64,000 bases of DNA, taken from NCBI GenBank assembly GCA_963792965.1, contig CAWBYW010000007.1, forward strand, positions 658,177 through 722,176, read 5' to 3'. Within the stretch, counting starts at the first letter, position 1, and every line of letters starts with the position of its first letter. The translations under genes were made by a program, and so were the position numbers. The notes under the pieces were generated by a model. It had not been told where the DNA came from and made no database searches. It saw only the letters and a list, made by a program, of their open reading frames with translations. Below are positions 16,953 to 34,060 of this stretch, piece by piece. Source of the DNA: an uncultured delta proteobacterium (GTDB lineage Bacteria > Desulfobacterota > Zymogenia > Zymogenales > Zymogenaceae).

Positions 16953-17900
16953 GTGTTCAAGTACATTGCCGACAGGCTGGTGTATGGCCTGCTGCACATA
17001 GCGCCGGACACGATGCTCGGCGGGGCCCTCAACTTTTTCTTCTACGACACGATGAAGATCTTTTTCCTGCTCATCGTGATTATTTATGTCGTGGCGGTCA
17101 TTCGATCCTTCTTCCCGCCGGAGCGGGCGCGCCGCCTCCTGGGAAACCGGCGTGAATACGCCGGCAACTTTCTTGCGGCCCTGCTCGGCATCGTAACGCC
17201 GTTTTGCTCCTGCTCGGCGGTGCCGATGTTCATCGGCTTCGTCGAGGCGGGCCTGCCGCTCGGCGTTACGTTCTCGTTTCTTATTTCTTCGCCCACCGTC
17301 AACGAGGTCGCCCTCGTGATGCTCTGGGGACTTTTCGGATGGAAGATAGCGCTCCTCTATATCGCCACGGGCGTCACCCTGGCCTTTTTGAGCGGTATCC
17401 TCATCGGGAAGCTGAATCTCGAAAACCAGGTCGAAGACTACGTCTATAAGATTCGTATGGGCCAAAGCGAGACCGCGGCCCTCACGTGGCGCGACCGCTC
17501 AAGCTATGCGTTTGGATATGTGTACGACATCCTGAAGCGGGTCTGGCTCTTCGTGCTCATCGGCATCGCCATCGGCGCCTGGATTCATGGCTACGCGCCG
17601 ATTGACTTCGTCGTGAAATATGCCGGGGCGGACAACCCCCTGGCCGTGCCGATTGCCGTGCTAATCGCCATACCGCTCTATTCCAACGCGGCCGGCACCA
17701 TTCCTATCGTCCAGGCGCTGGTGGAAAAAGGCATGCCGATAGGGACGGCGCTCGCGTTCATGATGGCGATCGTCGCCATCTCCGTCCCGGAGATGGTGAT
17801 CCTGCGCAAAGTGATAAAGCCCAAACTGATCGCTATCTTTGTGGGCATTGTGTCCATTGCGATTATTATTATTGGATATCTATTCAACGCCGTCTTATGA
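16953..17900 (+). CDS. arsP: ArsP/DUF318-family permease
   Basis: TPFCSCS and PLYSNAAG motifs, SVPEM; ars context. Confidence 0.8.
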   Translation: MFKYIADRLVYGLLHIAPDTMLGGALNFFFYDTMKIFFLLIVIIYVVAVIRSFFPPERARRLLGNRREYAGNFLAALLGIVTPFCSCSAVPMFIGFVEAGLPLGVTFSFLISSPTVNEVALVMLWGLFGWKIALLYIATGVTLAFLSGILIGKLNLENQVEDYVYKIRMGQSETAALTWRDRSSYAFGYVYDILKRVWLFVLIGIAIGAWIHGYAPIDFVVKYAGADNPLAVPIAVLIAIPLYSNAAGTIPIVQALVEKGMPIGTALAFMMAIVAISVPEMVILRKVIKPKLIAIFVGIVSIAIIIIGYLFNAVL

Positions 17901-17932
17901 GAACTGGATAATGAAGCAGAAAGGAGTAAGCA

Positions 17933-18167
17933 ATGAAGAAAATACAGATACTCGGCATGGGCTGTGCCAACTGCAAACGGCTGGAAAAGAACGCGCGAAC
18001 GGCCGTCGAAGAGCTCGGCATCAAATGCGAGGTAGAGAAAGTAGAAGACATTGAAAAGATCATGTCGTTTGGCGTGATGGCGACCCCGGGCCTGGCCGTG
18101 GACGGCAAGGTCGTATCGGCGGGCGAAGCTGCTGACACCCGACGAGATCAAGGAGTTTCTGAAGTAG
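17933..18167 (+). CDS. MTH895/ArsE-like small thioredoxin; 1-base frameshift near 18125
   Basis: GCANC, VMATPGLAVDG; removing one base restores the typical tail GKLLTPDEIKEFLK* (TAG 18165-18167). Confidence 0.82.
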
Positions 18168-18246
18168 GCGACCGCCGGCAAACACGTTCGGTATTCGACA
18201 CACGCACAAGGCAGACTCGTAACATCTATTGTTGGAGGAATATTCC

Positions 18247-18627
18247 ATGAGTTCGAAAAATGATTGTCAATGTTCAACTGCCCCTAAACTGATCTTCCCC
18301 TGCTCCGGGGCCGCGGACGTTGGGGGAATTGCCGACCAGGCAGGGCGGAAGCTATCCCGTGAAGGCATCGGAAACATGTTCTGCCTCGCTGGAATCGGCG
18401 GCGGGGTCTCTGGGATGATCGAATCGACAAAGGCCGCCTCGGCGGTCCTTGCCATCGACGGCTGCCCCATTGACTGCGCTAAAAAGACGCTGGAGAAGGC
18501 GGGCATCACCGATTTTGTCCATCTCAGGGTCACCGACCACGGAATGAAAAAGGGAGAGTCTCCCGTTACCGACGAGAGTATTGATAATATCGCAGATAGG
18601 GGCGCGGCCCTCCTTATGGGTCGTTGA
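18247..18627 (+). CDS. DGC-domain putative zinc-binding protein
   Basis: FPCSGAADVG, CLAG, IDGCPIDC; GGAGG RBS. Confidence 0.88.
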   Translation: MSSKNDCQCSTAPKLIFPCSGAADVGGIADQAGRKLSREGIGNMFCLAGIGGGVSGMIESTKAASAVLAIDGCPIDCAKKTLEKAGITDFVHLRVTDHGMKKGESPVTDESIDNIADRGAALLMGR

Positions 18628-18846
18628 CAGATACGCCTTTCGCGAATAACGATGCCCCATATGTTCATTATACCGGCGTGTCTGTAATCTTGGCAGGCAA
18701 TCGTCTTCGCTCACGGTCCGGACGCGCCCAAGAACTTTCGGGCGACTCTGAATCGACCCGGACGTAGCGGCGCAAGGGAGACACGGCCGGCGTCCCGTAG
18801 TCCCACATGGGTCACCGTTTTTGTGAACAAAGCAAAGGAGAAGAAG

Positions 18847-19473
18847 ATGAAAACACAATTCGTACCGCCGGGATGGGCATTTGACTTTCATGGGCATCGC
18901 TGTCCTTTCATGCCGATCGGCTACCGGATGGGGATGCTGGCAATGGAGAAACTCGGGATCGAGCGCGAGAAGGATCACGGCTTCTTCATATTCCCCGAGA
19001 TGGGAGAAGGCCATCCGCAGAGCTGCATCATGGACGGCATGCAGGCGGCGACCGGCGCAACCTACGGTAAGGCCCTGATGGCCAAAACCTTTTACGGCAA
19101 ACTGGCCGCGACCTTTTATCACCCCAAGAAAGGGGCCGTCCGCTTTTCTCTCACCCCGGCATTTCTGGACGCGATGGGCAAATTCGAGTTCTTCGCATAC
19201 CGCAAGCGTGGCGTGGAGCCGTCGGGCATCCCTTCTGTGGTCGGCGATGAAGTCATCGACTGGATCGCCGAGCAACCGGACGACGCGATCTTTAAGGTCG
19301 AGGATAAACCGGACTTCACCTATACGCCGGTGAAGGGTTCGTTCAACAAGACGCTCTGTACTGAATGCGGGGAATATGTATTCGATCGGTTCGTACGTAT
19401 CAAAGACGGCAAGCCCTTTTGCATACCCTGCTCCGGATATCAAAAAACGGTCAAGCGTGAGAGCGGGGCATGA
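18847..19473 (+). CDS. FmdE-family protein with C-terminal zinc finger
   Basis: FHGHRCP, CIMDG, CTECGE...CIPC. Confidence 0.85.
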   Translation: MKTQFVPPGWAFDFHGHRCPFMPIGYRMGMLAMEKLGIEREKDHGFFIFPEMGEGHPQSCIMDGMQAATGATYGKALMAKTFYGKLAATFYHPKKGAVRFSLTPAFLDAMGKFEFFAYRKRGVEPSGIPSVVGDEVIDWIAEQPDDAIFKVEDKPDFTYTPVKGSFNKTLCTECGEYVFDRFVRIKDGKPFCIPCSGYQKTVKRESGA

Positions 19474-20213
19474 CGGCGGTTATTGCGGGGATCATCACCT
19501 TTGCCTTTACGACCCTGCTCACCATCGCAGGCGTGGGAGCGGCCTTCATCCTGATTCCCGTTTTTATTGCGCTTGGGATCGAGCTCCACGCGGCGATGGC
19601 GACGGCCCTGCTGCTGAACTCAATCAGTATGTCGGTCGCCTCTGTCAATTTCATCAGACGCAAGCTGGTCGTATGGCGAATCGCAATTCCGATTCTCATC
19701 ATCGCCAGCGCGCTCTCTCCCATCGGCGCGCGAGTGAGCCAGCAGCTTGACAAAAACCTGCTGCTCTGGATGTTTGTGGGCTTCCTGGTCTTCGCGGCGG
19801 CAATGATGCTCTTTTACACTCCCAGACTGAGGGAGAGCTCTTACAAAACGGGGACGCTTCTGGGGGTGGGAATGAGCGTCGGCGGCGTTGCCGGGTTTCT
19901 GGGCGGGCTGCTCGGCGTTGGCGGTGGAAACTTCATCGTGCCGGCGCTGGTGGGATTTGGATTTGATCCGAAGAAAGCCTCGGCAACCACCGCATTCGTG
20001 GTGATCTTTGCGTCATTCGCGGGCTTCCTGGGGCATGTGACGCTCGGCGGCATGAACTACCTATTGCTCGGCTTGACCGCGATCGGCTCTGCCGCCGGGG
20101 CCGCTCTCGGGTCGTATCTGATGTCTGATAAGCTCAAGGGAAGACAGGTCAAAATCATCATCGGCCTCGTGTTGATCGGCATCGCCGTCAAGATGATCTG
20201 GGATCTTCTGTAA
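19470..20213 (+). CDS. TauE/SafE-family (sulfite exporter-like) membrane protein
   Basis: GVGAAFILIP and GLLGVGGGNFIVP repeats; multiple TM segments. Confidence 0.85.
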   Translation: MTAVIAGIITFAFTTLLTIAGVGAAFILIPVFIALGIELHAAMATALLLNSISMSVASVNFIRRKLVVWRIAIPILIIASALSPIGARVSQQLDKNLLLWMFVGFLVFAAAMMLFYTPRLRESSYKTGTLLGVGMSVGGVAGFLGGLLGVGGGNFIVPALVGFGFDPKKASATTAFVVIFASFAGFLGHVTLGGMNYLLLGLTAIGSAAGAALGSYLMSDKLKGRQVKIIIGLVLIGIAVKMIWDLL

Positions 20214-20310
20214 TGTATTGGACATGCCGCGCCGAAACGGATAAGCGTGCTGAAAAACAATATGAATACGGTAATAGGAAAGCTGAATCGGGTGACAAAG
20301 GAGATAACGC

Positions 20311-20749
20311 ATGGAAACAAAACCTGAGAATCGAATAAACAAGCCCCGGATTTCTTCCGTGGTTAAGATTATCCTTTTGGTATTGGTTGTATTCGTGGCG
20401 GCAGGTGTGTTATACATCTCTGCAATACGGCCCGGCGTAATTGGCCGACACCGCCGTCGCCCGTGATTCGCTTCCCGTCCTCGTGGACCTGGGCGCGGAC
20501 AGGTGTATACCCTGCAAGATGATGGCGCCGATTCTTGAGGAACTCAGAAAGGAATACAAGGGTAAGCTTGAGGTTGTCTTTTATGATGTATGGAAAGACC
20601 CCGCTCCCGCCGATAAATTCAAAATATACGGCATTCCGACACAGATATTCCTTGATGAAACCGGAAAGGAGCTGTATCGTCACGCAGGCTATTTCTCAAA
20701 AGAAGAAATACTGCGTAAATGGAAAGAGTTAGGCTATGATTTTCAATAG
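20311..20749 (+). CDS. membrane-anchored thioredoxin; frameshift near 20440
   Basis: ATG 20311 with RBS gives a TM anchor (IILLVLVVFVAAGVLY); second frame gives DLGADRCIPC...IPTQIF. Confidence 0.8.
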
Positions 20750-20876
20750 GAACCGGTGTCCCGCGGGAAAGAGATATGTTCTTTCAAAAGACGTATACGT
20801 CGTGCTGTGATGAGACAGGCAACAAACGAAACGCGGTAGTACCGTACCGCTCTTACATCTGAGGAGTTGTTAGTTC

Positions 20877-21486
20877 ATGAAACCAAAGACCGTCGTCACC
20901 ATAATCCTGCTGCTTTTCGTCGCGGCCAGCGTCGCCTACCTTGTTGTGGGAGAACGCGGAGGGCAAACCAAAAGCCGAGACCATTCCCTCCGGGTCCGCC
21001 CTGACCGATCCCGTTCCTAACAATTCTGTCGATACTAATAGCTCTCGTGGGACGCCTCCGGCTGTCGCTTCTCCGGCGGACACATCGTCAGAGGGTAGAA
21101 CCCCCCCGAGTAACCGCGTACCGCCGGCGACAGTGTCTCCCGACACCTATGTCGTCGTTTACTATTTCCACGGCTACTATCGCTGTATGACCTGCCGGAC
21201 GATCGAGATGTACACGCGGGAGGCCGTCAACGAGGCCTTTCTCAAGGAGCTCGGCGACGGCAGCCTTCACCTGCGCGTTCTCAACATGCAGGATCCGGTC
21301 AATGAGGCATATGTGAAGGACTTCAAATTGGAGTACTACGTCGTCGTGCTTGAGAAGGTGGTTAATGGCAAACGGGTCGAATGGAAGAAGCTCGAGGGGG
21401 TGTGGGACCTCCTCAAGGATAAGGACGCGTTCAAGAAATACGTCGTAAGCGAGACACGGGACTACCTGAAGGGAATTAACCAATGA
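20877..21486 (+). CDS. arsF: ArsF-family (thioredoxin-like) exported protein; frameshift near 20950
   Basis: ATG 20877 with signal/TM MKPKTVVTIILLLFVAASVAYL; VYYFHGYYRCMTC motif; precedes ArsG-like gene. Confidence 0.72.
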
Positions 21487-22175
21487 CGGACCTTATCATT
21501 GCCGTCGCTTCCGCCTTCTGGCTGGGGATACTCACCACCGTCAGCCCCTGTCCCCTGGCGACCAATGTCGCCGCCGTATCGTATGTTGGGAGAAACGTCA
21601 CAAGCTCATGGAAGGTCTTTTTTTCCGGCCTTCTCTACACACTGGGGAGAACGACGGTCTATGTTATCATCGGGGTGATCCTGGTCAAGAGCCTGCTTAC
21701 GGCCGTGAATCTATCTTTGTTTCTCCAAAACCATGTCAACCAGATACTTGGCCCCATCCTCGTCGTTGTGGGTATGGTCCTGGTCGGGTTGATCAATTTT
21801 AACATCTCCGGGTTTGGCCAGAGCAAGCGGCTCGAGCGATGGGTTGACGCCTTGGGCTTGGGAGGGGCGTTCCTCCTGGGGGCGGTCTTTGCGCTCTCGT
21901 TCTGCCCGGTCTCGGCGGCGCTGTTTTTCGGGAGCCTGATTCCCGTTGCAGTGGCCAGCGGATCGGTCCTAATCGTCCCCTCCGCCTACGGGGCGGCAAC
22001 GGGCCTGCCGGTGCTGGTTTTCGCGGTGCTGTTGGCCGCCGGGGTAAAACAAATCACCCCTGTATTCGACAAGATCGTCCGTTACGAGATATGGATCAGG
22101 CGTATCACCGGCATCGTTTTCATCCTCGTGGGAATCTATTATTCCCTCGTATACATCTTTCGGATCTATGGTTGA
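21483..22175 (+). CDS. arsG: ArsG-family / CcdA-like membrane protein
   Basis: SPCPLATN and LSFCPVSAALFFG paired TM cysteine motifs. Confidence 0.78.
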   Translation: MTDLIIAVASAFWLGILTTVSPCPLATNVAAVSYVGRNVTSSWKVFFSGLLYTLGRTTVYVIIGVILVKSLLTAVNLSLFLQNHVNQILGPILVVVGMVLVGLINFNISGFGQSKRLERWVDALGLGGAFLLGAVFALSFCPVSAALFFGSLIPVAVASGSVLIVPSAYGAATGLPVLVFAVLLAAGVKQITPVFDKIVRYEIWIRRITGIVFILVGIYYSLVYIFRIYG

Positions 22176-22310
22176 AGGTATATAATACGGGCACGCGGGT
22201 CGGCAGTGGCGTCTAATAAGCCCAACAAGAACCGCAAAAATCCGATCGTCCATCGATCGCTGCCATAAGGTGTATTGCTTTTGTCATTTACCGGTTAATA
22301 GGAGAATGGC

Positions 22311-23369
22311 GTGAAAACTGTGGTAGTGGAAGAAAAGAAGCTCTCGTTCGTCGACCGGTTTCTCACCGTCTGGATCTTCGTCGCCATGGCCCTTGGAATT
22401 GGGATCGGGAACTACTTCACGTCGGTCACCGATTTCATATCGGGGCTCCAAATCGGCACCACGTCCATCCCCATCGCCGTGGGTCTCATCCTCATGATGT
22501 ACCCGCCGCTGGCCAGGGTCAAGTACGAGGAGATGGGAAAGATCTTCCGGAACAAGAAGCTTCTTGTCCTTTCTCTCGTTCAGAACTGGATCATCGGGCC
22601 GCTCTTCATGTTCGGCCTTGCGGTGCTGTTCTTGCACCATTACCCGCACTACATGATCGGCGTCATCCTCGTGGGGCTTGCCCGCTGCATCGCCATGGTT
22701 ATCGTCTGGAACGAGCTGGCGGGGGGTGACCGGGAGCTCACCGTGGGACTCGTGGCCTTCAACGCCGTCTTCCAGGTTCTCTTCTATGCGGTCTATATCT
22801 ACCTCTTCATCACGGTGGGGCTCAACTGGCTGGGCCTTGCCAACGGTGTTCAGGCGCAGATTTCGTTCTGGGACGCCGCCAAGACCGTCTTCGTCTACCT
22901 CGGGATACCGTTCGTGGGCGGCATTGTCACCCGATTTTCACTCCTCAAGCTGAAAGGGAAACAGTGGTTTGAGGAGGTGTTTGCGCCGCGGATCGGCCCG
23001 ATCACCCTTGTCGCACTCCTCTTCACGATCGTCGTCATGTTCTCCCTCAAGGGAGGCTATATCATCCGGCAGCCCTTTGACGTATTGATCATCGCGGTGC
23101 CACTGGTCATCTATTTCCTCGTCATGTGGTTCGTAACCTACTTCATCGCATATAAGATTGGGGCAAACTACGGCCAGTCGACCGCCGTCTCCTTTACCGC
23201 CGCCAGCAACGATTTTGAGCTTGCCATCGCCGTCGCGGTGGCCATCTTCGGGATCGCGTCCAGCGAGGCGTTTGCCACGGTGATCGGCCCGCTCTTGGAG
23301 GTGCCCATCCTGATCTCGCTGGTCAACGTGGCCCTCCGGTTCAAGACGCGCCTCTTTGCCCGCGCGTAA
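22311..23369 (+). CDS. acr3: ACR3-family arsenite efflux transporter
   Basis: [40 protein letters not shown]. Confidence 0.95.
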
Positions 23370-28016: not shown

Positions 28017-28976
28017 CTACTGCTCGTCCGCCGTATCGGGTGGACTGCCGGCCGACTCCGGGGTGTTCTTCTGGAGCCACCGATAGTATTCATTTTCAAG
28101 CTTATTGAGCACCGAGTCCCGGAAAATCAGCGACCCGACCGGAACCATCTCGCCGGTCATCCGGTACGGGCGGGCGGCACCTATGGTCACGGTGACCCTC
28201 CCGAGCCGCTTCCCCTTCTCGTCGGCCGAGACCATATAGACGCCTTCGTGAAGCGTGGGTATGGGGATCGGTTGGGGCTCGCTCGTGGTGATGATGAGGT
28301 CCACGCCCGGGACGGCCTTGGCGAAGTCGTAGGCGTCCTTGCGGTCCATGGCCAGGAGCGCAACAATAAGGGTTGCCTTGCCCGACAGCTCCTTGACCAT
28401 CTTTCTCCCCGTCTCTCTGGGGTCCGTAAAGGTGAAGGTGTCCACATCGTGGGCGCCGGAGACTCCCCCTCCCGCGATGCCGAAGAAGCCGACCTTGACG
28501 CCGCCGACATTCTTGACAAAGGAGGTCTCGAAGACCGGCGCTCCCGTCTTCTTTAATACGATATTGGAGCTGATAATCTTGAAGCTCGACGTATCCCTGA
28601 TCTTCACCAGGAAGTCGAGCCCGGCCGCCAGATCGTTGGGGCCGACGTTGGCGACGTCATACTTCACCAGGCTCATGCCTTTTGCGACATACTCTGCGGC
28701 TACCTTGTCCTCGGCCTCAGTTATTGAGGAGAGGCTGATGCCGTTAAAAAGAGAATTTCCCGCGTCCACCACGATGACGTTCGGGTTACCCTTCCTTATT
28801 TCGTTAAGGACGGTGGCTCGCCGGGCGAACCCGCCCAGCCGTTTATTCTCTCACCCGCAGGGGATAACTTCGCCATAGTTGTCGCAGGAATGGACGATCG
28901 TCACCATCGCGGCGACGGCCGCAAGCGGCCAGCTCAGGAAAAGCACCAGCAACGACAGCGCATAAAGTTTCTTCAT
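28017..28976 (-). CDS. secreted UshA/5'-nucleotidase-fold selenoprotein (CGU motif, in-frame TGA at 28851-28853 read as Sec), 319 aa
   Basis: ATG 28976 + signal peptide + IVHSCDNYGEVIPCG-TGA-ENKRLGGFARRAT...VVDAGN continuous in frame with ORF 28017..28772; SECIS-like hairpin follows. Confidence 0.85.
28815..28840 (-). promoter_or_regulatory. bacterial SECIS-like element
   Basis: CUGGGCG-GGUU-CGCCCGG hairpin; loop starts 20 nt after UGA. Confidence 0.7.
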
Positions 28977-30569: not shown

Positions 30570-31227
30570 TTACTGAAAATGCGCGGGGAGCTCCGAGATG
30601 TCCTCGATGATGATCTCCGCCCCGGCGTCTTTCAGGTCTTTACGTGTTCCGAACCCGTAGGTAACGCCACAGGGGATGACGCCCGCGGCCCGTGCCGCCT
30701 TGATGTCGTCAGGGGTGTCTCCCACCATTACGGTGCGGGAGGGGTCGGCGCCGAACTCGCTTCACGGCAAAGATAATTGGCTCGGGATACGGCTTCATGC
30801 TCCCCGCGGTATCGGCCCCCACCACGAGGTCGATCATATCGGTAAGCCCCAGCCCTTCAATGACTCGGTCGGCCATATGTTTGAGCTTATTGGTCACCAC
30901 CGCCTTCTTCTTGGTGATGCCGGAGAGGGTTTCGATGACCCCGGGGAACGGTTTGGTAGTAACCAGAAGGTGCTTGTCGAGATGCTCGAGGTAGACCCGG
31001 AAGGTCTCATACTTCGCGGCGCCGTCACCGCCGGAAAACCTCGAAAGGAGCTGAGATACACCTTTGCCCAGGAGGGTGGCGATACGCTCCTCGGAGAGCT
31101 CGCGAAATCCAAAGGATTTGAGGGTCTGGTTGATAGCGGCCACGAGATCTTTCTTGGAGTCAGACAGCGTGCCGTCGAGGTCGAAGAGGAAGAGGTCTAT
31201 TTCCTTTTTATGGTTTTTCTTTTCCAT
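30570..31227 (-). CDS. HAD-family phosphatase (phosphoglycolate phosphatase-like); frameshift near 30760
   Basis: FDLDGTL, VTNK, KPYPE; second frame MVGDTPDDIKAARAAG...VTYGFG to TAA 30570. Confidence 0.82.
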
Positions 31228-31360
31228 CGGAGTCTTGTGCTCACCCCCCTCGTATTGATGTCTATCGTTAACCGGACGCCATAATAGATCGTAGAAACCC
31301 AAGTTTTTGAACTATAGCACCAATATAAATAAATTGTCAACATGAGAGAATACTTATTTC

Positions 31361-31389
31361 TTGATCGAAAGACTATTTTTTTATATACT
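31361..31389 (+). promoter_or_regulatory. sigma70-like promoter for arsN2
   Basis: TTGATC-17 bp-TATACT in AT-rich divergent spacer. Confidence 0.5.
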
Positions 31390-31441
31390 TGAGAGGCCGA
31401 CAACAATCGCCGCGGTCAACGGGTGCCCAAGAGAGACCAAT

Positions 31442-31887
31442 ATGGAAGCAGTAATTACGCTCAGGAAGGCGCACAAGGACGACATCCCGTTTATCACGCG
31501 GTGCTTCAGGAAAACGAGCTTCCCTGCAGACGACGTGCCGGAAAAGATAGACTCGCTCTTCGTCGTCCTTTCCGATCGGCGGGACGTAGGCACCGGCGGG
31601 GTGGAGCTCCTCGGCCGGTACGGGCTCCTCCGATCTCTGGCAGTCCGGCACGAGGAGCGGAACAAGGGGATATGGCGCGGCGGCCGTGCGTGGGTTGGTG
31701 CGGCACGCAAAGGAGCGGGGAGTCGAGGAGCTCTACCTGCTGACGACGGACGCGGAGGCCTTCTTCGAGAAGCTCGGGTTTGAGCGAATCGACCGGGACT
31801 CCGCACCTCTGTCCCGTCAAAGAGACGAGCCAGTTCTCGGGCCTCTGACCAGACTCGGCCGTCCTGCTGGTCAGCAGGCTCGCGTAG
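31442..31887 (+). CDS. arsN2: arsenic-resistance N-acetyltransferase ArsN2-family GNAT with several indels; in-frame TGA (31846-31848) at the conserved Cys position
   Basis: Across frames: ENELP, GGVE...GLLRSLAV, LYLLTTDAEAFFEKLGF...RDSAP, ETSQFSGL-TGA-PDSAVLLVSRLA-TAG. Confidence 0.75.
31863..31878 (+). promoter_or_regulatory. bacterial SECIS-like element
   Basis: CCUGCU-GGUC-AGCAGG perfect hairpin; loop starts 21 nt after UGA. Confidence 0.65.
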
Positions 31888-31980
31888 CCTCCCATGCGCC
31901 CTTCAGAGATCCCTGGGACTGGGCAGATGATTCCCCGGGAAAAGAGCGTTCTCGTTTTTCGAGAAAGCTCTCTCTATTTC

Positions 31981-32631
31981 TCACCGCTTTTCAAGATAAC
32001 GCGCGATCATCCGGGCCGTTTCCCGAAAGACGCGGTCGCGGTCGATCGGTACCTCGTAGAATAAGAGGTACTGAATAATCTCATCCATAGCTTTGTGGAC
32101 GACGAGCGTTGCGGCATCGGCGTCTCTCACCTCGATTCGGTCTCCATAGCGCTCTAAGAAGGCCCCGACGATAACCTTCCGTGCCTCCCGCTCGAAGGAC
32201 TCATGGACCGCCCTGATCTCGTCGTCGATGAGCGAAAGGATTACGACATCTCGCTGTATCCTGAGACGGCGTGAGAGAATTCCGGCAAACCGCTTGATGA
32301 CGCGGTATATGGACTCCTCGATATCGACGGTGTCGGAGGGGTCATCGTTGGTTTGACCCAACAACTCATCTCTGAATTCATCCGAATAAGACGCAAAGAT
32401 CTCGACGAAGATATTCTTCTTATCGGAAAAATATGCATATACGGTCCCGATCGAGACTCCGGCGGCGGCCGCGATATCTCGCATTCCGACGGCATCGTAC
32501 CCTCTCCGGGAAAAGAGCTCAAAGGCCGCTTCCACGATCCTCGCTTTCTTTTCCCTGGCGCGATCCTGCACCGGTGTGCGTGCGGTGCTTCTTCTTCTCC
32601 CTCCCGGTTTACCTCTATTATCCATCTCCAC
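31981..32631 (-). CDS. TetR/AcrR-family regulator
   Basis: IVEAAFELF...GMRDIAAAAGVSIGTVYAYFSDK HTH. Confidence 0.92.
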   Translation of the reverse strand: MEMDNRGKPGGRRRSTARTPVQDRAREKKARIVEAAFELFSRRGYDAVGMRDIAAAAGVSIGTVYAYFSDKKNIFVEIFASYSDEFRDELLGQTNDDPSDTVDIEESIYRVIKRFAGILSRRLRIQRDVVILSLIDDEIRAVHESFEREARKVIVGAFLERYGDRIEVRDADAATLVVHKAMDEIIQYLLFYEVPIDRDRVFRETARMIARYLEKR

Positions 32632-32843: not shown

Positions 32844-34060
32844 ATGAAACAATTCAGGCCACACGTCGGGTACCATCATTTTCACGACGAGGTGAACATG
32901 AACTTCCAACTCAATCGTGCTCTCTCGTTCGGGGAGGGCACCGCCCCCGAGATCGACGCGATTGCCCGGAGAATAAAGAACCTCGCCGATTGGAAGCGGG
33001 AGTTTCTGGGGCTTGCCCGGATGGCGGAACGCGAAGGGAGGACGGCCGTCGCCCTGTCTTCCTATCGGCTTGCCGAGTTCTACATGACCACGGGCGACCC
33101 CGACAAAGAGCGGGCATACGATCGGTTCATCGAGCTCTTCCACGATTATATGGAGGATGAATATGCGAAGGGACGCATCATCGAAGATCGTGTAACTTAC
33201 CAGCGGGGATATCTTCCCGTGATGAGACTCCCGGTGACCGAGGGGAAGAAGAAGGGTACGCTTGTGGCGCACGGCGGGTACGACTCATTTATCGAGGAGC
33301 TCTACCCATTGATGACCTATTTTCGCGATCATGGATACGAAGTATACGCCTTCGAGGGGCCGGGCCAGGGGGGATGTCTCAGGAGGTACGGACTCGTGAT
33401 GACTCCCGAGTGGGAAAAACCGGTCTCCGCGATCCTCGATCATTATAAGCTCGAGCGACGTGACGCTGTTGGGAATTTCGCTCGGCGGGTATCTGGCGCC
33501 CCGCGCCGGCGGCATTTGAAAAAAGAATAGCGCGAGTAATCGCCTACGACGTGATCTACGACTTCTTCGGATGCATCGCGTCGGCTCGGGGACCTCTTTT
33601 GGCGACCGTGATACGCGCCCTCACGGCTCTGAGGGCCGCGCCGTTGCTCAATGCGATCGTCCGTGCCCGGATGAAACACGACCCCTTCGTCTCGTGGGGA
33701 GTGAGCCAAGGATACCATGTATTCGGAGTGAAAAGGCCCTACAACTATTTTAAGGAAACGATGGAATACTCGACGAAAAAGATTTCCCGCCTCGTCATCC
33801 AGGATGTCCTTTTGCTGGCCGGCACCCACGACCATTTCGTCCCGACCGAGATGCTCTACCGCCAGGCAAAAGCGCTCACAAGCGTCCGCTCCCTGACTTG
33901 TCGTCTCTTCACCGAGGCAGAGTTCGCCCAAAGCCATTGTCAGGTCGGAAACATCGAGCTCGCGCTCTCGTGTATCGTTGCGTGGATGGACGAGATGGGG
34001 GACGAGAAAAGAAGTGAGCGGCCGATGAATACTTCGAGAAAGATTCGTTCACTCCGTTGA
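32844..34060 (+). CDS. alpha/beta hydrolase (S9/FrsA-like); two frameshifts near 33455 and 33508
   Basis: GGYDSFIEE, EGPGQG, GISLGG nucleophile elbow in the intermediate frame, DHFVP, HCQVGN. Confidence 0.82.

Follow-up and report, generated by a model that had tools for sequence, protein, structure and literature searches.

ArsN2 proteins are described as clade 2 of the GNAT N-acetyltransferases encoded in arsenic resistance (ars) operons (Nadar et al. 2019, PMC6465285). That study centers on arsN1, and its passages on ArsN2 report no activity for the protein. Selenocysteine (Sec) forms of two arsenic-linked enzymes, ArsM and ArsC, appear in a 2026 review of prokaryotic selenoproteins (PMC13188914). 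Here, we analyzed a 64,000-nucleotide stretch of DNA from an uncultured delta proteobacterium (assembly GCA_963792965.1, contig CAWBYW010000007.1, positions 658,177 to 722,176; called the window below), in which an ArsN2-family gene at 31442-31887 contains an in-frame TGA. From sequence comparison, we consider it about 85% probable that this gene encodes a Sec-containing N-acetyltransferase of the ArsN2 clade, with Sec inserted at the TGA.

The gene begins with ATG at 31442 and cannot be read in any single frame; four frame changes are needed to recover the whole protein. Read frame by frame, the first segments are MEAVITLRKAHKDDIPFITR, then VLQENELP, then ADDVPEKIDSLFVVLSDRRDVGTGGVELLGRYGLLRSLAVRHEERNKG, and then YGAAAVRGLVRHAKERGVEELYLLTTDAEAFFEKLGFERIDRDSAPL, and the last is VKETSQFSGL followed by the TGA (31846-31848), PDSAVLLVSRLA, and a TAG stop (31885-31887). 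The initial annotation of this DNA had described a GNAT ending in TGA and then TAG once about four apparent indels were corrected, and the same reading was recovered, with indels near 31500-31501, near 31522-31525, and at 31665-31669 and 31812-31815. The four corrections give 444 bases, or 147 codons plus a stop, equal to the relatives. A match to Pfam Acetyltransf_1 places the product in the GNAT superfamily. Moreover, the readable pieces match NF040501, the NCBIfam equivalog "arsenic resistance N-acetyltransferase ArsN2" (curated cut-off, 125 bits), at model positions 5-65, 62-111, and 113-131 of 133 with 43.2, 53.2, and 20.3 bits, respectively. The window copy scores only in pieces because of the frame breaks. 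Intact orthologs pass the cut-off when the TGA is read as Cys, with 146 bits for G005/L022 and 144.2 bits for L070, and P0009, a form with Cys, scores 144.3 bits. The acetyl-CoA motif of GNATs is R/Q-x-x-G-x-G/A, and it reads RNRGYG in the orthologs and ERNKG, then YG across a frame break, in the window copy.

The TGA falls on the invariant Cys of the family. The C-terminal motif of ArsN2, EF..LCP.SA, is present in the clade with U replacing C, and the Cys column is one of just 9 invariant columns in an alignment of 75 sequences (four Sec forms read as Cys, P0009, and 70 full-length Cys forms; the truncated members of P0001-P0025 and the fragments P0053, P0086, P0087, P0093, and P0099 were left out). 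Cys also occupies the column in 149 of the 150 best representatives of 50%-identity clusters, and in the remaining one it is shifted by one position. The placement of the TGA on this conserved Cys, proposed from the window alone, thus holds across the family. Two Cys-type loci, L060 and L062, have no Cys at the column and a Cys a few residues later.

The TGA is kept in all six clade DNA sequences: the window, four genomes of a sister genus in the same family (G005, G007, G009, and G002), and a JGI metagenome contig (L070, 76% identity). An NF040501 scan of 61 related genomes gave an ArsN2 match with one TGA in four, all of that one sister genus, scoring 137.9 bits (G005), 136.5 bits (G007), and 133.6 bits (G009) against the cut-off of 125 and 105.8 bits in G002, where there is an additional break. 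All four translations end in EF.(G/V)L-stop-P.SA.LLVSRL.-stop. Cys forms at the same site occur in G036 (EFRQLCPLSAIVM...) and G004 (EFSLLCPETAVLM...). The combination of TGA and hairpin first seen in the window recurs at this site in G005, G007, G009, G002, and L070. A collection of 5.8 billion proteins gave 100 matches. Among the 25 closest (61-92% identity; from JGI, NCBI, ENA, and Logan), 24 terminate precisely at EF..L, where the Cys would be the next residue, and the exception is P0009 (JGI metagenome, 147 aa), which has the Cys (LCPNSAVPLVGRLD). The remaining 75 mostly have Cys in an LCP-type motif of the C-terminal tail, and a few are fragments or divergent. Three of the truncated proteins, P0003, P0010, and P0020, lie at zero tree distance from L023, L070, and L024, respectively, whose DNA has the TGA and the extension beyond it.

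Sequence past the TGA varies as coding sequence would. In the six DNA sequences, the TGA is followed by Pro (CCA/CCG/CCC), a variable N/D/G, Ser (TCC/TCG), Ala (GCG/GCC), and GTC/GAC and then by CTG, Leu (CTG/TTG), GTC, AGC, AGG, CTT/CTC, and one more codon or the stop. Four of these codons (Pro, Ser, Ala, and the second Leu) vary synonymously only. The P.SA motif is kept, and the frame closes 12 to 13 codons on, at the end point of the Cys forms. Third-codon positions are invariant in 6 of the 12 codons after the TGA versus 3 of the 28 before it. Three of the six sequences (L022, L026, and L070) also use TGA as the stop that ends the gene, 13 codons beyond the in-frame TGA, and thus TGA is not reassigned genome-wide. 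In an AlphaFold2 model of the G005 protein, residues 140-145 form the last strand of the GNAT sheet, and therefore a stop at 135 would delete that strand.

Downstream of the TGA is a candidate bacterial Sec insertion sequence (SECIS). The perfect hairpin CCUGCU-GGUC-AGCAGG that the initial annotation reported is present (CCTGCT-GGTC-AGCAGG in the DNA): it starts at the 15th base past the TGA, after a gap of 14 bases, and the spacing from UGA to loop is 20 nt. Its minimum free energy (MFE) is -7.7 kcal/mol as a 16-mer and -8.5 kcal/mol as a 20-mer. Bacterial SECIS rules in the Fig. 2 legend of PMC13188914 call for a loop of 3-9 nt, a stem of 4-16 bp, and G in the first two loop positions, and the same source gives a distance of 16-37 nt from the UGA and an MFE of -7.5 kcal/mol or lower. 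The hairpin agrees with all of these constraints as worded there. Its columns are invariant at 15 of 16 positions in six sequences whose proteins are otherwise 65-88% identical, and the single change, C to U in G009, retains a G-U pair. By chance, a perfect 6-bp hairpin under the same loop and spacing rules follows 2164 of 76047 sampled TGAs in this genome (2.8%), and thus the hairpin by itself carries little weight. A genome-wide search for the exact TGA-N14-hairpin pattern, however, found it once, and a reversed control had none. An Rfam scan of 31300-32000 at E <= 1 gave no match, as expected if Rfam has no generic bacterial SECIS model.

The genome has the machinery for Sec. The sel genes on which the Sec interpretation depends were found, and selA, selB, selD, and tRNA-Sec all exceed curated cut-offs. 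The best piece of selA scores 193.5 bits, and the gene is split into four pieces (G000:C16:161118-162159, L001-L004). selB is intact with 363.8 bits, tRNA-Sec scores 72.9 bits against a gathering score of 47, and selD (TIGR00476; G000:C7:544063-544998, L152, outside the window) scores 355.1 bits. The selD gene has one in-frame TGA, and SelD itself is probably a selenoprotein in this genome. selB was also found in G005, G007, and G009 and was not found in G002 (89% complete) at E <= 1e-60.

Table 1. Positions of the ArsN2-family gene, its parts and frame breaks, and other genes in the window
Feature	Position	Strand	Basis or score
ArsN2-family GNAT N-acetyltransferase gene	31442..31887	+	NF040501 matches on 3 readable pieces
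In-frame TGA, candidate Sec at residue 135 (ortholog numbering), motif (E/Q)F..L-U-P.SA	31846..31848	+	Aligns with Cys of homologs
12 codons after the TGA (PDSAVLLVSRLA) and TAG stop; predicted last GNAT strand	31849..31887	+	Synonymous variation; P.SA motif; AlphaFold2 strand 140-145
Candidate bacterial SECIS hairpin, 6-bp stem CCUGCU/AGCAGG, loop GGUC at 31869-31872	31863..31878	+	Agrees with bacterial SECIS rules; conserved
Two compensating frame breaks: one base missing at GG 31500-31501, one extra at CCCT 31522-31525	31500..31525	+	Frame translations; positions inferred
Frame break, one extra base, AA/GGGG run in acetyl-CoA motif R-x-x-G-x-G	31665..31669	+	X1 contig; relatives
Frame break, one extra base at T/CCC	31812..31815	+	X2/X3 contigs; relatives
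UshA-like selenoprotein gene, PCG-U motif, TGA 28851-28853	28020-28976	-	NF041198, 193 bits
ACR3	22311-23369		
ArsG permease	21483-22175		
ArsF-family gene (nitroreductase subunit)	20941-21486		
Thioredoxin	20441-20749		
SaoE-like efflux protein	16953-17900		NF040736, 132 bits, below cut-off

How residue 135 might act is suggested by structure. The AlphaFold2 model of the G005 protein (predicted local distance difference test score, 94.4; predicted TM-score, 0.88) has the strand and helix order of a GNAT. A fold search with it gave at least 500 GNAT matches in the PDB, the best being N-acetylglutamate synthases (NAGS; 2r8v, TM-score 0.84), and Mycobacterium tuberculosis Rv2747 (5yge/5yo2) matched with TM-scores of 0.77-0.80. 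No solved ArsN2 structure was among the PDB sequence matches. In the model, U135 follows a short helix in the connection between beta6 and beta7. The account of the ligand site in PMC4490483 names Arg316, Arg425, Ser427, and the backbone of Leu314 and Cys356 as the groups that bind the carboxylates of glutamate in Neisseria gonorrhoeae NAGS (ngNAGS). By phmmer, Arg316 falls beside the near-invariant LP motif of ArsN2 (residue numbers shifted by 20, as worked out from the alignment). With ngNAGS taken as 436 residues (the 456-residue chain minus the shift of 20), Arg425 is 11 residues and Ser427 is 9 residues away from its C terminus. In ArsN2, the distances are 12 residues for U135 and 9 for the conserved S138, both within the same connection of beta6 and beta7. 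The sequence alignment stops before the C-terminal segment, however, so the correspondence of U135 to Arg425 and Ser427 is approximate, and a residue-level mapping was abandoned for that reason.

We propose that the hairpin with the GGUC loop, 20 nt downstream of the UGA, would recruit SelB and tRNA-Sec to read this codon as Sec and that translation would go on for 12 more codons to build the last beta-strand. The selenol, or the thiol of Cys forms, would replace a carboxylate-binding side chain and hold the As of a trivalent arsenical amino acid. Held in this way by residue 135, the As would position the amine of the substrate for acetyl transfer. Affinity for As(III) is higher for selenols, and selenium would give tighter binding of the As. 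By analogy, residue 135 is most likely an arsenic ligand for a trivalent arsenical amino-acid substrate and less likely a nucleophile. We speculate further that ArsN2 acetylates a trivalent arsenical analog of glutamate, captured by a covalent As-S or As-Se bond at the site of the NAGS Arg and Ser, and that the Sec form is a high-affinity version for scavenging very low concentrations in anoxic sediments. In this full form the proposal is doubtful. If true, it would be the first GNAT-fold selenoenzyme to use selenium for substrate capture instead of redox chemistry.

Several observations weigh against a Sec-containing ArsN2 in the window, or against the role proposed for its residue 135. Short-read contigs (X1-X4) were drawn from other public runs, the best of which shared 0.12 of sampled words, and they cover the stretch in parts. 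No one contig spans the gene. Those from X2, X3, and X4 that cross 31846-31848 belong to relatives of about 90% identity, and the cover by X1 there starts at 31847, one base into the TGA. The gene has four breaks in 446 bases, about ten times the density of the adjacent 4.3 kb, where there are 3. Covariation in the hairpin is almost absent, for across six sequences a single G-C pair has changed to G-U. The placement of U135 on the NAGS ligand residues rests on fold likeness and on distance to the C terminus, as the alignments end at about residue 124-127. The gene sits outside an ars operon in both genera examined, between genes for a HAD hydrolase and a TetR regulator. No published biochemical activity of any ArsN2 protein was found in the literature searched, and thus the arsenic substrate is a guess. 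Finally, Sec insertion itself is something that we infer.

Sec135 might instead be a catalytic nucleophile, forming an acetyl-selenoester in a ping-pong mechanism, or a redox switch, with a substrate that has no connection to arsenic, either an ordinary amino acid or a thiol compound. GNATs, including NAGS, normally transfer acetyl directly without a covalent intermediate, which counts against the nucleophile. The position of the gene away from ars operons in both genera would fit a role outside arsenic metabolism, as would the nearest solved relatives, which acetylate glutamate. Moreover, Sec usually replaces a catalytic, redox-active Cys. PMC13188914 places the Sec of selenoproteins in active sites. 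The same review, however, places many recently found selenoproteins in Hg and As resistance, with Sec proposed as a metal ligand. In addition, the ArsN2 family model was named from ars-operon members, its equivalog cut-off is passed by the Sec forms, and fusions within the family point toward arsenic: among 10 longer ArsN2 representatives, there is one fusion to LMWPc (ArsC-type) and one to a methyltransferase. We consider this nucleophilic or redox reading of Sec135 unlikely, though it is the main alternative to an arsenic ligand. The fusions as a group (P0126, P0207, P0158, P0138, P0170, and P0111) involve LMWPc, methyltransferase, a Cys/Met pyridoxal phosphate (PLP) enzyme, response-regulator/Trans_reg_C, and sigma-70 domains, and some may be gene-calling run-ons.

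Whether the window copy is a pseudogene turns on its four frame breaks. The first two enclose VLQENELP, which is read in another frame, and the shifts compensate within 25 bases; contigs X2 and X3 read ...GAGCTTCCC (...CTTCCC) joined directly to 31526. At 31665, record 1 of the X1 contig (151 bases, 31556-31707, 3 mismatches, 98% identical) has one base fewer, as do all four relatives (alignment column 231). At 31812, record 4 of X2 and record 7 of X3 (about 89-91% identical) have one base fewer, again as do all four relatives (alignment column 376). The contigs thus bear on three of the breaks and, at two of them, speak against the added base. Every break is the gain or loss of a single base within a short G/C run or next to one, and breaks of the same type occur nearby, one in the HAD gene (two pieces, 30570-31302) and two in the alpha/beta hydrolase gene (three pieces, 32844-34060). 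The GHL13 and TetR genes are intact. Close relatives are recorded as metagenome-assembled genomes (MAGs) in very few, megabase-long contigs, which suggests long-read assemblies. Homopolymer indels are typical of long-read assemblies.

Because neighboring genes and selA are broken alike, assembly error is likelier than a pseudogene, and we think that the four breaks are very probably errors of assembly. It is improbable, though conceivable, that the Sec-ArsN2 family is real and the window copy is a pseudogene with four genuine inactivating indels. The density of breaks relative to the neighboring 4.3 kb would fit inactivation, as would the one frame break in the G002/L069 copy, and none of the short-read contigs comes from the source organism. 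Yet the 98%-identical X1 contig is without the extra base at 31665, and the window copy retains all 9 invariant family residues, the P.SA motif, and the hairpin, with no stops beyond those that the shifts create. At nearly invariant positions it differs just once, by D in place of T103, and the clade member P0018 has the same change. The initial annotation had allowed that the indels might mark a pseudogene; that they look like assembly errors is now the better account, with the short-read support confined to two of the four sites. In any event, the existence of the Sec-ArsN2 family is independent of the window copy. Indel errors are frequent in this assembly, and any frameshift in this genome should be distrusted. 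The Sec-ArsN2 gene of G002 (L069/L026, a Ca. Zymogenaceae MAG in a 90-contig assembly) has its frame break in a G run, at GIGGG followed by a stop.

A third alternative is that the TGA is a real stop, that the clade makes a GNAT truncated at 134 residues, and that the hairpin is a terminator or regulatory element rather than a SECIS. Every gene caller ended the protein there, giving the 24 truncated database entries, a moderately U-rich stretch (CUUGUUUGAU) follows the hairpin in some relatives, and a minimal SECIS-like hairpin follows 2.8% of random TGAs. The window and L023, however, have no U run after the hairpin. Truncation would remove the invariant Cys and the last core strand, and the 12 codons past the TGA retain the P.SA motif, show synonymous variation at 4 codons, and share their end point with Cys homologs. 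Moreover, the Cys form P0009, nested in the clade, has the full C terminus. A real stop is therefore very improbable. That the TGA is a sequencing or assembly error for TGC or TGT is effectively refuted for the family, for although the assembly is error prone, its observed errors are indels and not substitutions, the TGA is found again in five independent assemblies besides this one, and the column is where 24 database proteins end.

Sec seems to have entered the family once. In a maximum-likelihood tree of 72 rows (28 Sec-labeled, P0009, and 43 Cys forms, with P0053 and P0070-P0100 left out), all Sec forms and P0009 group as a single clade (support 100/93). Within it, two early Sec branches split off before P0009, and the Sec/Cys label needs 2 changes on a tree that was rooted at the midpoint and in which 24 Sec labels come from truncation alone, three of them (P0003, P0010, and P0020) confirmed against DNA. 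A single gain of Sec with one later return to Cys would explain this most simply. P0009, the apparent revertant, is a natural control for functional comparison. The genomes of the clade are labeled "uncultured delta proteobacterium" and "Candidatus Zymogenaceae," and Sec would have replaced the family-invariant Cys in a clade of uncultured deltaproteobacterial (Zymogenaceae-like) bacteria of sediment and soil. No literature was found under "Zymogenaceae." In a phylum sample of 401 genomes, 23 had an ArsN2 match at E <= 1e-20, and the TGA was seen only in the four sister-genus genomes. Among the best 27 (L067-L093) of 83 loci, no TGA at the column was found beyond L067-L070, and none of the 150 best of 5743 ArsN2 cluster representatives (E <= 0.001) ends at the Cys column. 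The representatives library gave no Sec-clade member among its matches, the best being 50% identical, though the other collection has 24 clusters of the clade at 90% identity.

The genomic neighborhood is shared between genera. The order GHL13 - HAD - ArsN2 - TetR - alpha/beta hydrolase is common to the window and G005. The ArsN2 gene is monocistronic, with the HAD hydrolase gene divergent across a 140-base AT-rich spacer and the TetR gene convergent. As first noted from the letters, the gene lies 8 kb from an ars cluster and near another Sec gene: the ArsF-family, ArsG, and ACR3 genes (20941-23369) end 8 kb upstream, and the UshA-like selenoprotein gene is 3 kb upstream. The clade genes are thus ArsN2 by sequence and not by the ars-operon criterion as set out in Nadar et al. 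2019 (PMC6465285). The ars genes form part of a metal and metalloid cluster at 16953-23369 that also includes a SaoE-like protein and thioredoxin; SaoE belongs to a selenoprotein-associated operon as presented in PMC13188914. The UshA-like protein scores below the 275-bit cut-off of NF041198, "UshA-like (seleno)protein," and matches model positions 18-269 of 519. It is just 319 aa long and the C-terminal half of the model is absent. A gene for a MobA-like nucleoside triphosphate (NTP) transferase directly follows it.

Sec-ArsN2 appears, by the standard logic of Sec/Cys pairs, to be an undescribed family of the bacterial selenoproteome. The initial annotation knew of no such selenoprotein family, and the literature and NCBIfam searches agree. 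No paper on a Sec-containing GNAT or ArsN2 was found in the literature searched. The main text and family table of the 2026 review (PMC13188914) contain no acetyltransferase, ArsN, NF040501, PF00583, or PF13508, and "gnat" occurs only inside other words. The main texts of a 2022 review and of the deep-Sep paper (PMC12013277) likewise gave no match, though supplementary tables might list the family. NCBIfam release 20.0 has the plain ArsN2 model alone and no selenoprotein-specific one, whereas other families there are named "(seleno)protein." Sec-ArsN2 would add a GNAT-fold enzyme to the bacterial selenoproteome and, after ArsM and ArsC, a third arsenic-linked type. A natural swap of Cys for Sec strongly suggests that the residue is critical for function, here the one invariant Cys in the loop on the acceptor side. 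ArsN2 is widespread and annotated as an arsenic resistance enzyme, and the swap offers a concrete hypothesis for the substrate search. Finally, at least 24 database entries (NCBI, JGI, ENA, and Logan) are shortened by 13 residues at the TGA and need reannotation.

The locus resembles several known systems in part. The SECIS of Escherichia coli fdhF also has a GGUC loop, and the candidate element is likewise a short hairpin just 3' of the UGA within the coding region. It differs in having just a perfect 6-bp stem with no bulged U identified and in giving no Rfam match. Both have G at the first loop positions and a spacing within the 16-37 nt of the rules quoted from PMC13188914. NAGS acetyltransferase domains, those of N. 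gonorrhoeae (2r8v) and Rv2747, are the best fold and sequence matches in the PDB, and Cys356, whose main chain binds glutamate in the site described in PMC4490483, pairs with S65 of the invariant LLRS by phmmer. ArsN2 is unlike NAGS in having no kinase-like domain and in its C-terminal helix-Cys/Sec-strand, which cannot be aligned by sequence and where NAGS uses Arg425 and Ser427, as described in the same account. The Sec forms of ArsM (UxxG) and ArsC (UxxS) listed in PMC13188914 share with Sec-ArsN2 a Cys-to-Sec change at a conserved Cys of an arsenic-linked enzyme in anaerobic, Sec-using bacteria, and they were detected by the same combination of Sec/Cys pairs and bacterial SECIS. ArsN2, however, has a GNAT fold and not a Rossmann methyltransferase or thioredoxin-like/LMWP fold, and it has a single Sec without the partner Cys of a UxxC-type motif. 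Closest of all is ArsN2 itself (NF040501; clade 2 in PMC6465285). The differences are Sec in place of the invariant Cys and a location away from any ars operon, in contrast to the all-operon arsN set of that study. Fold, length, and the motifs LP, LLRS, R-x-x-G-x-G, and EF..L[C/U]P.SA are nevertheless the same, and the ArsN2 proteins described there are, like this one, nearer to N-acetylglutamate synthases than to phosphinothricin acetyltransferases.

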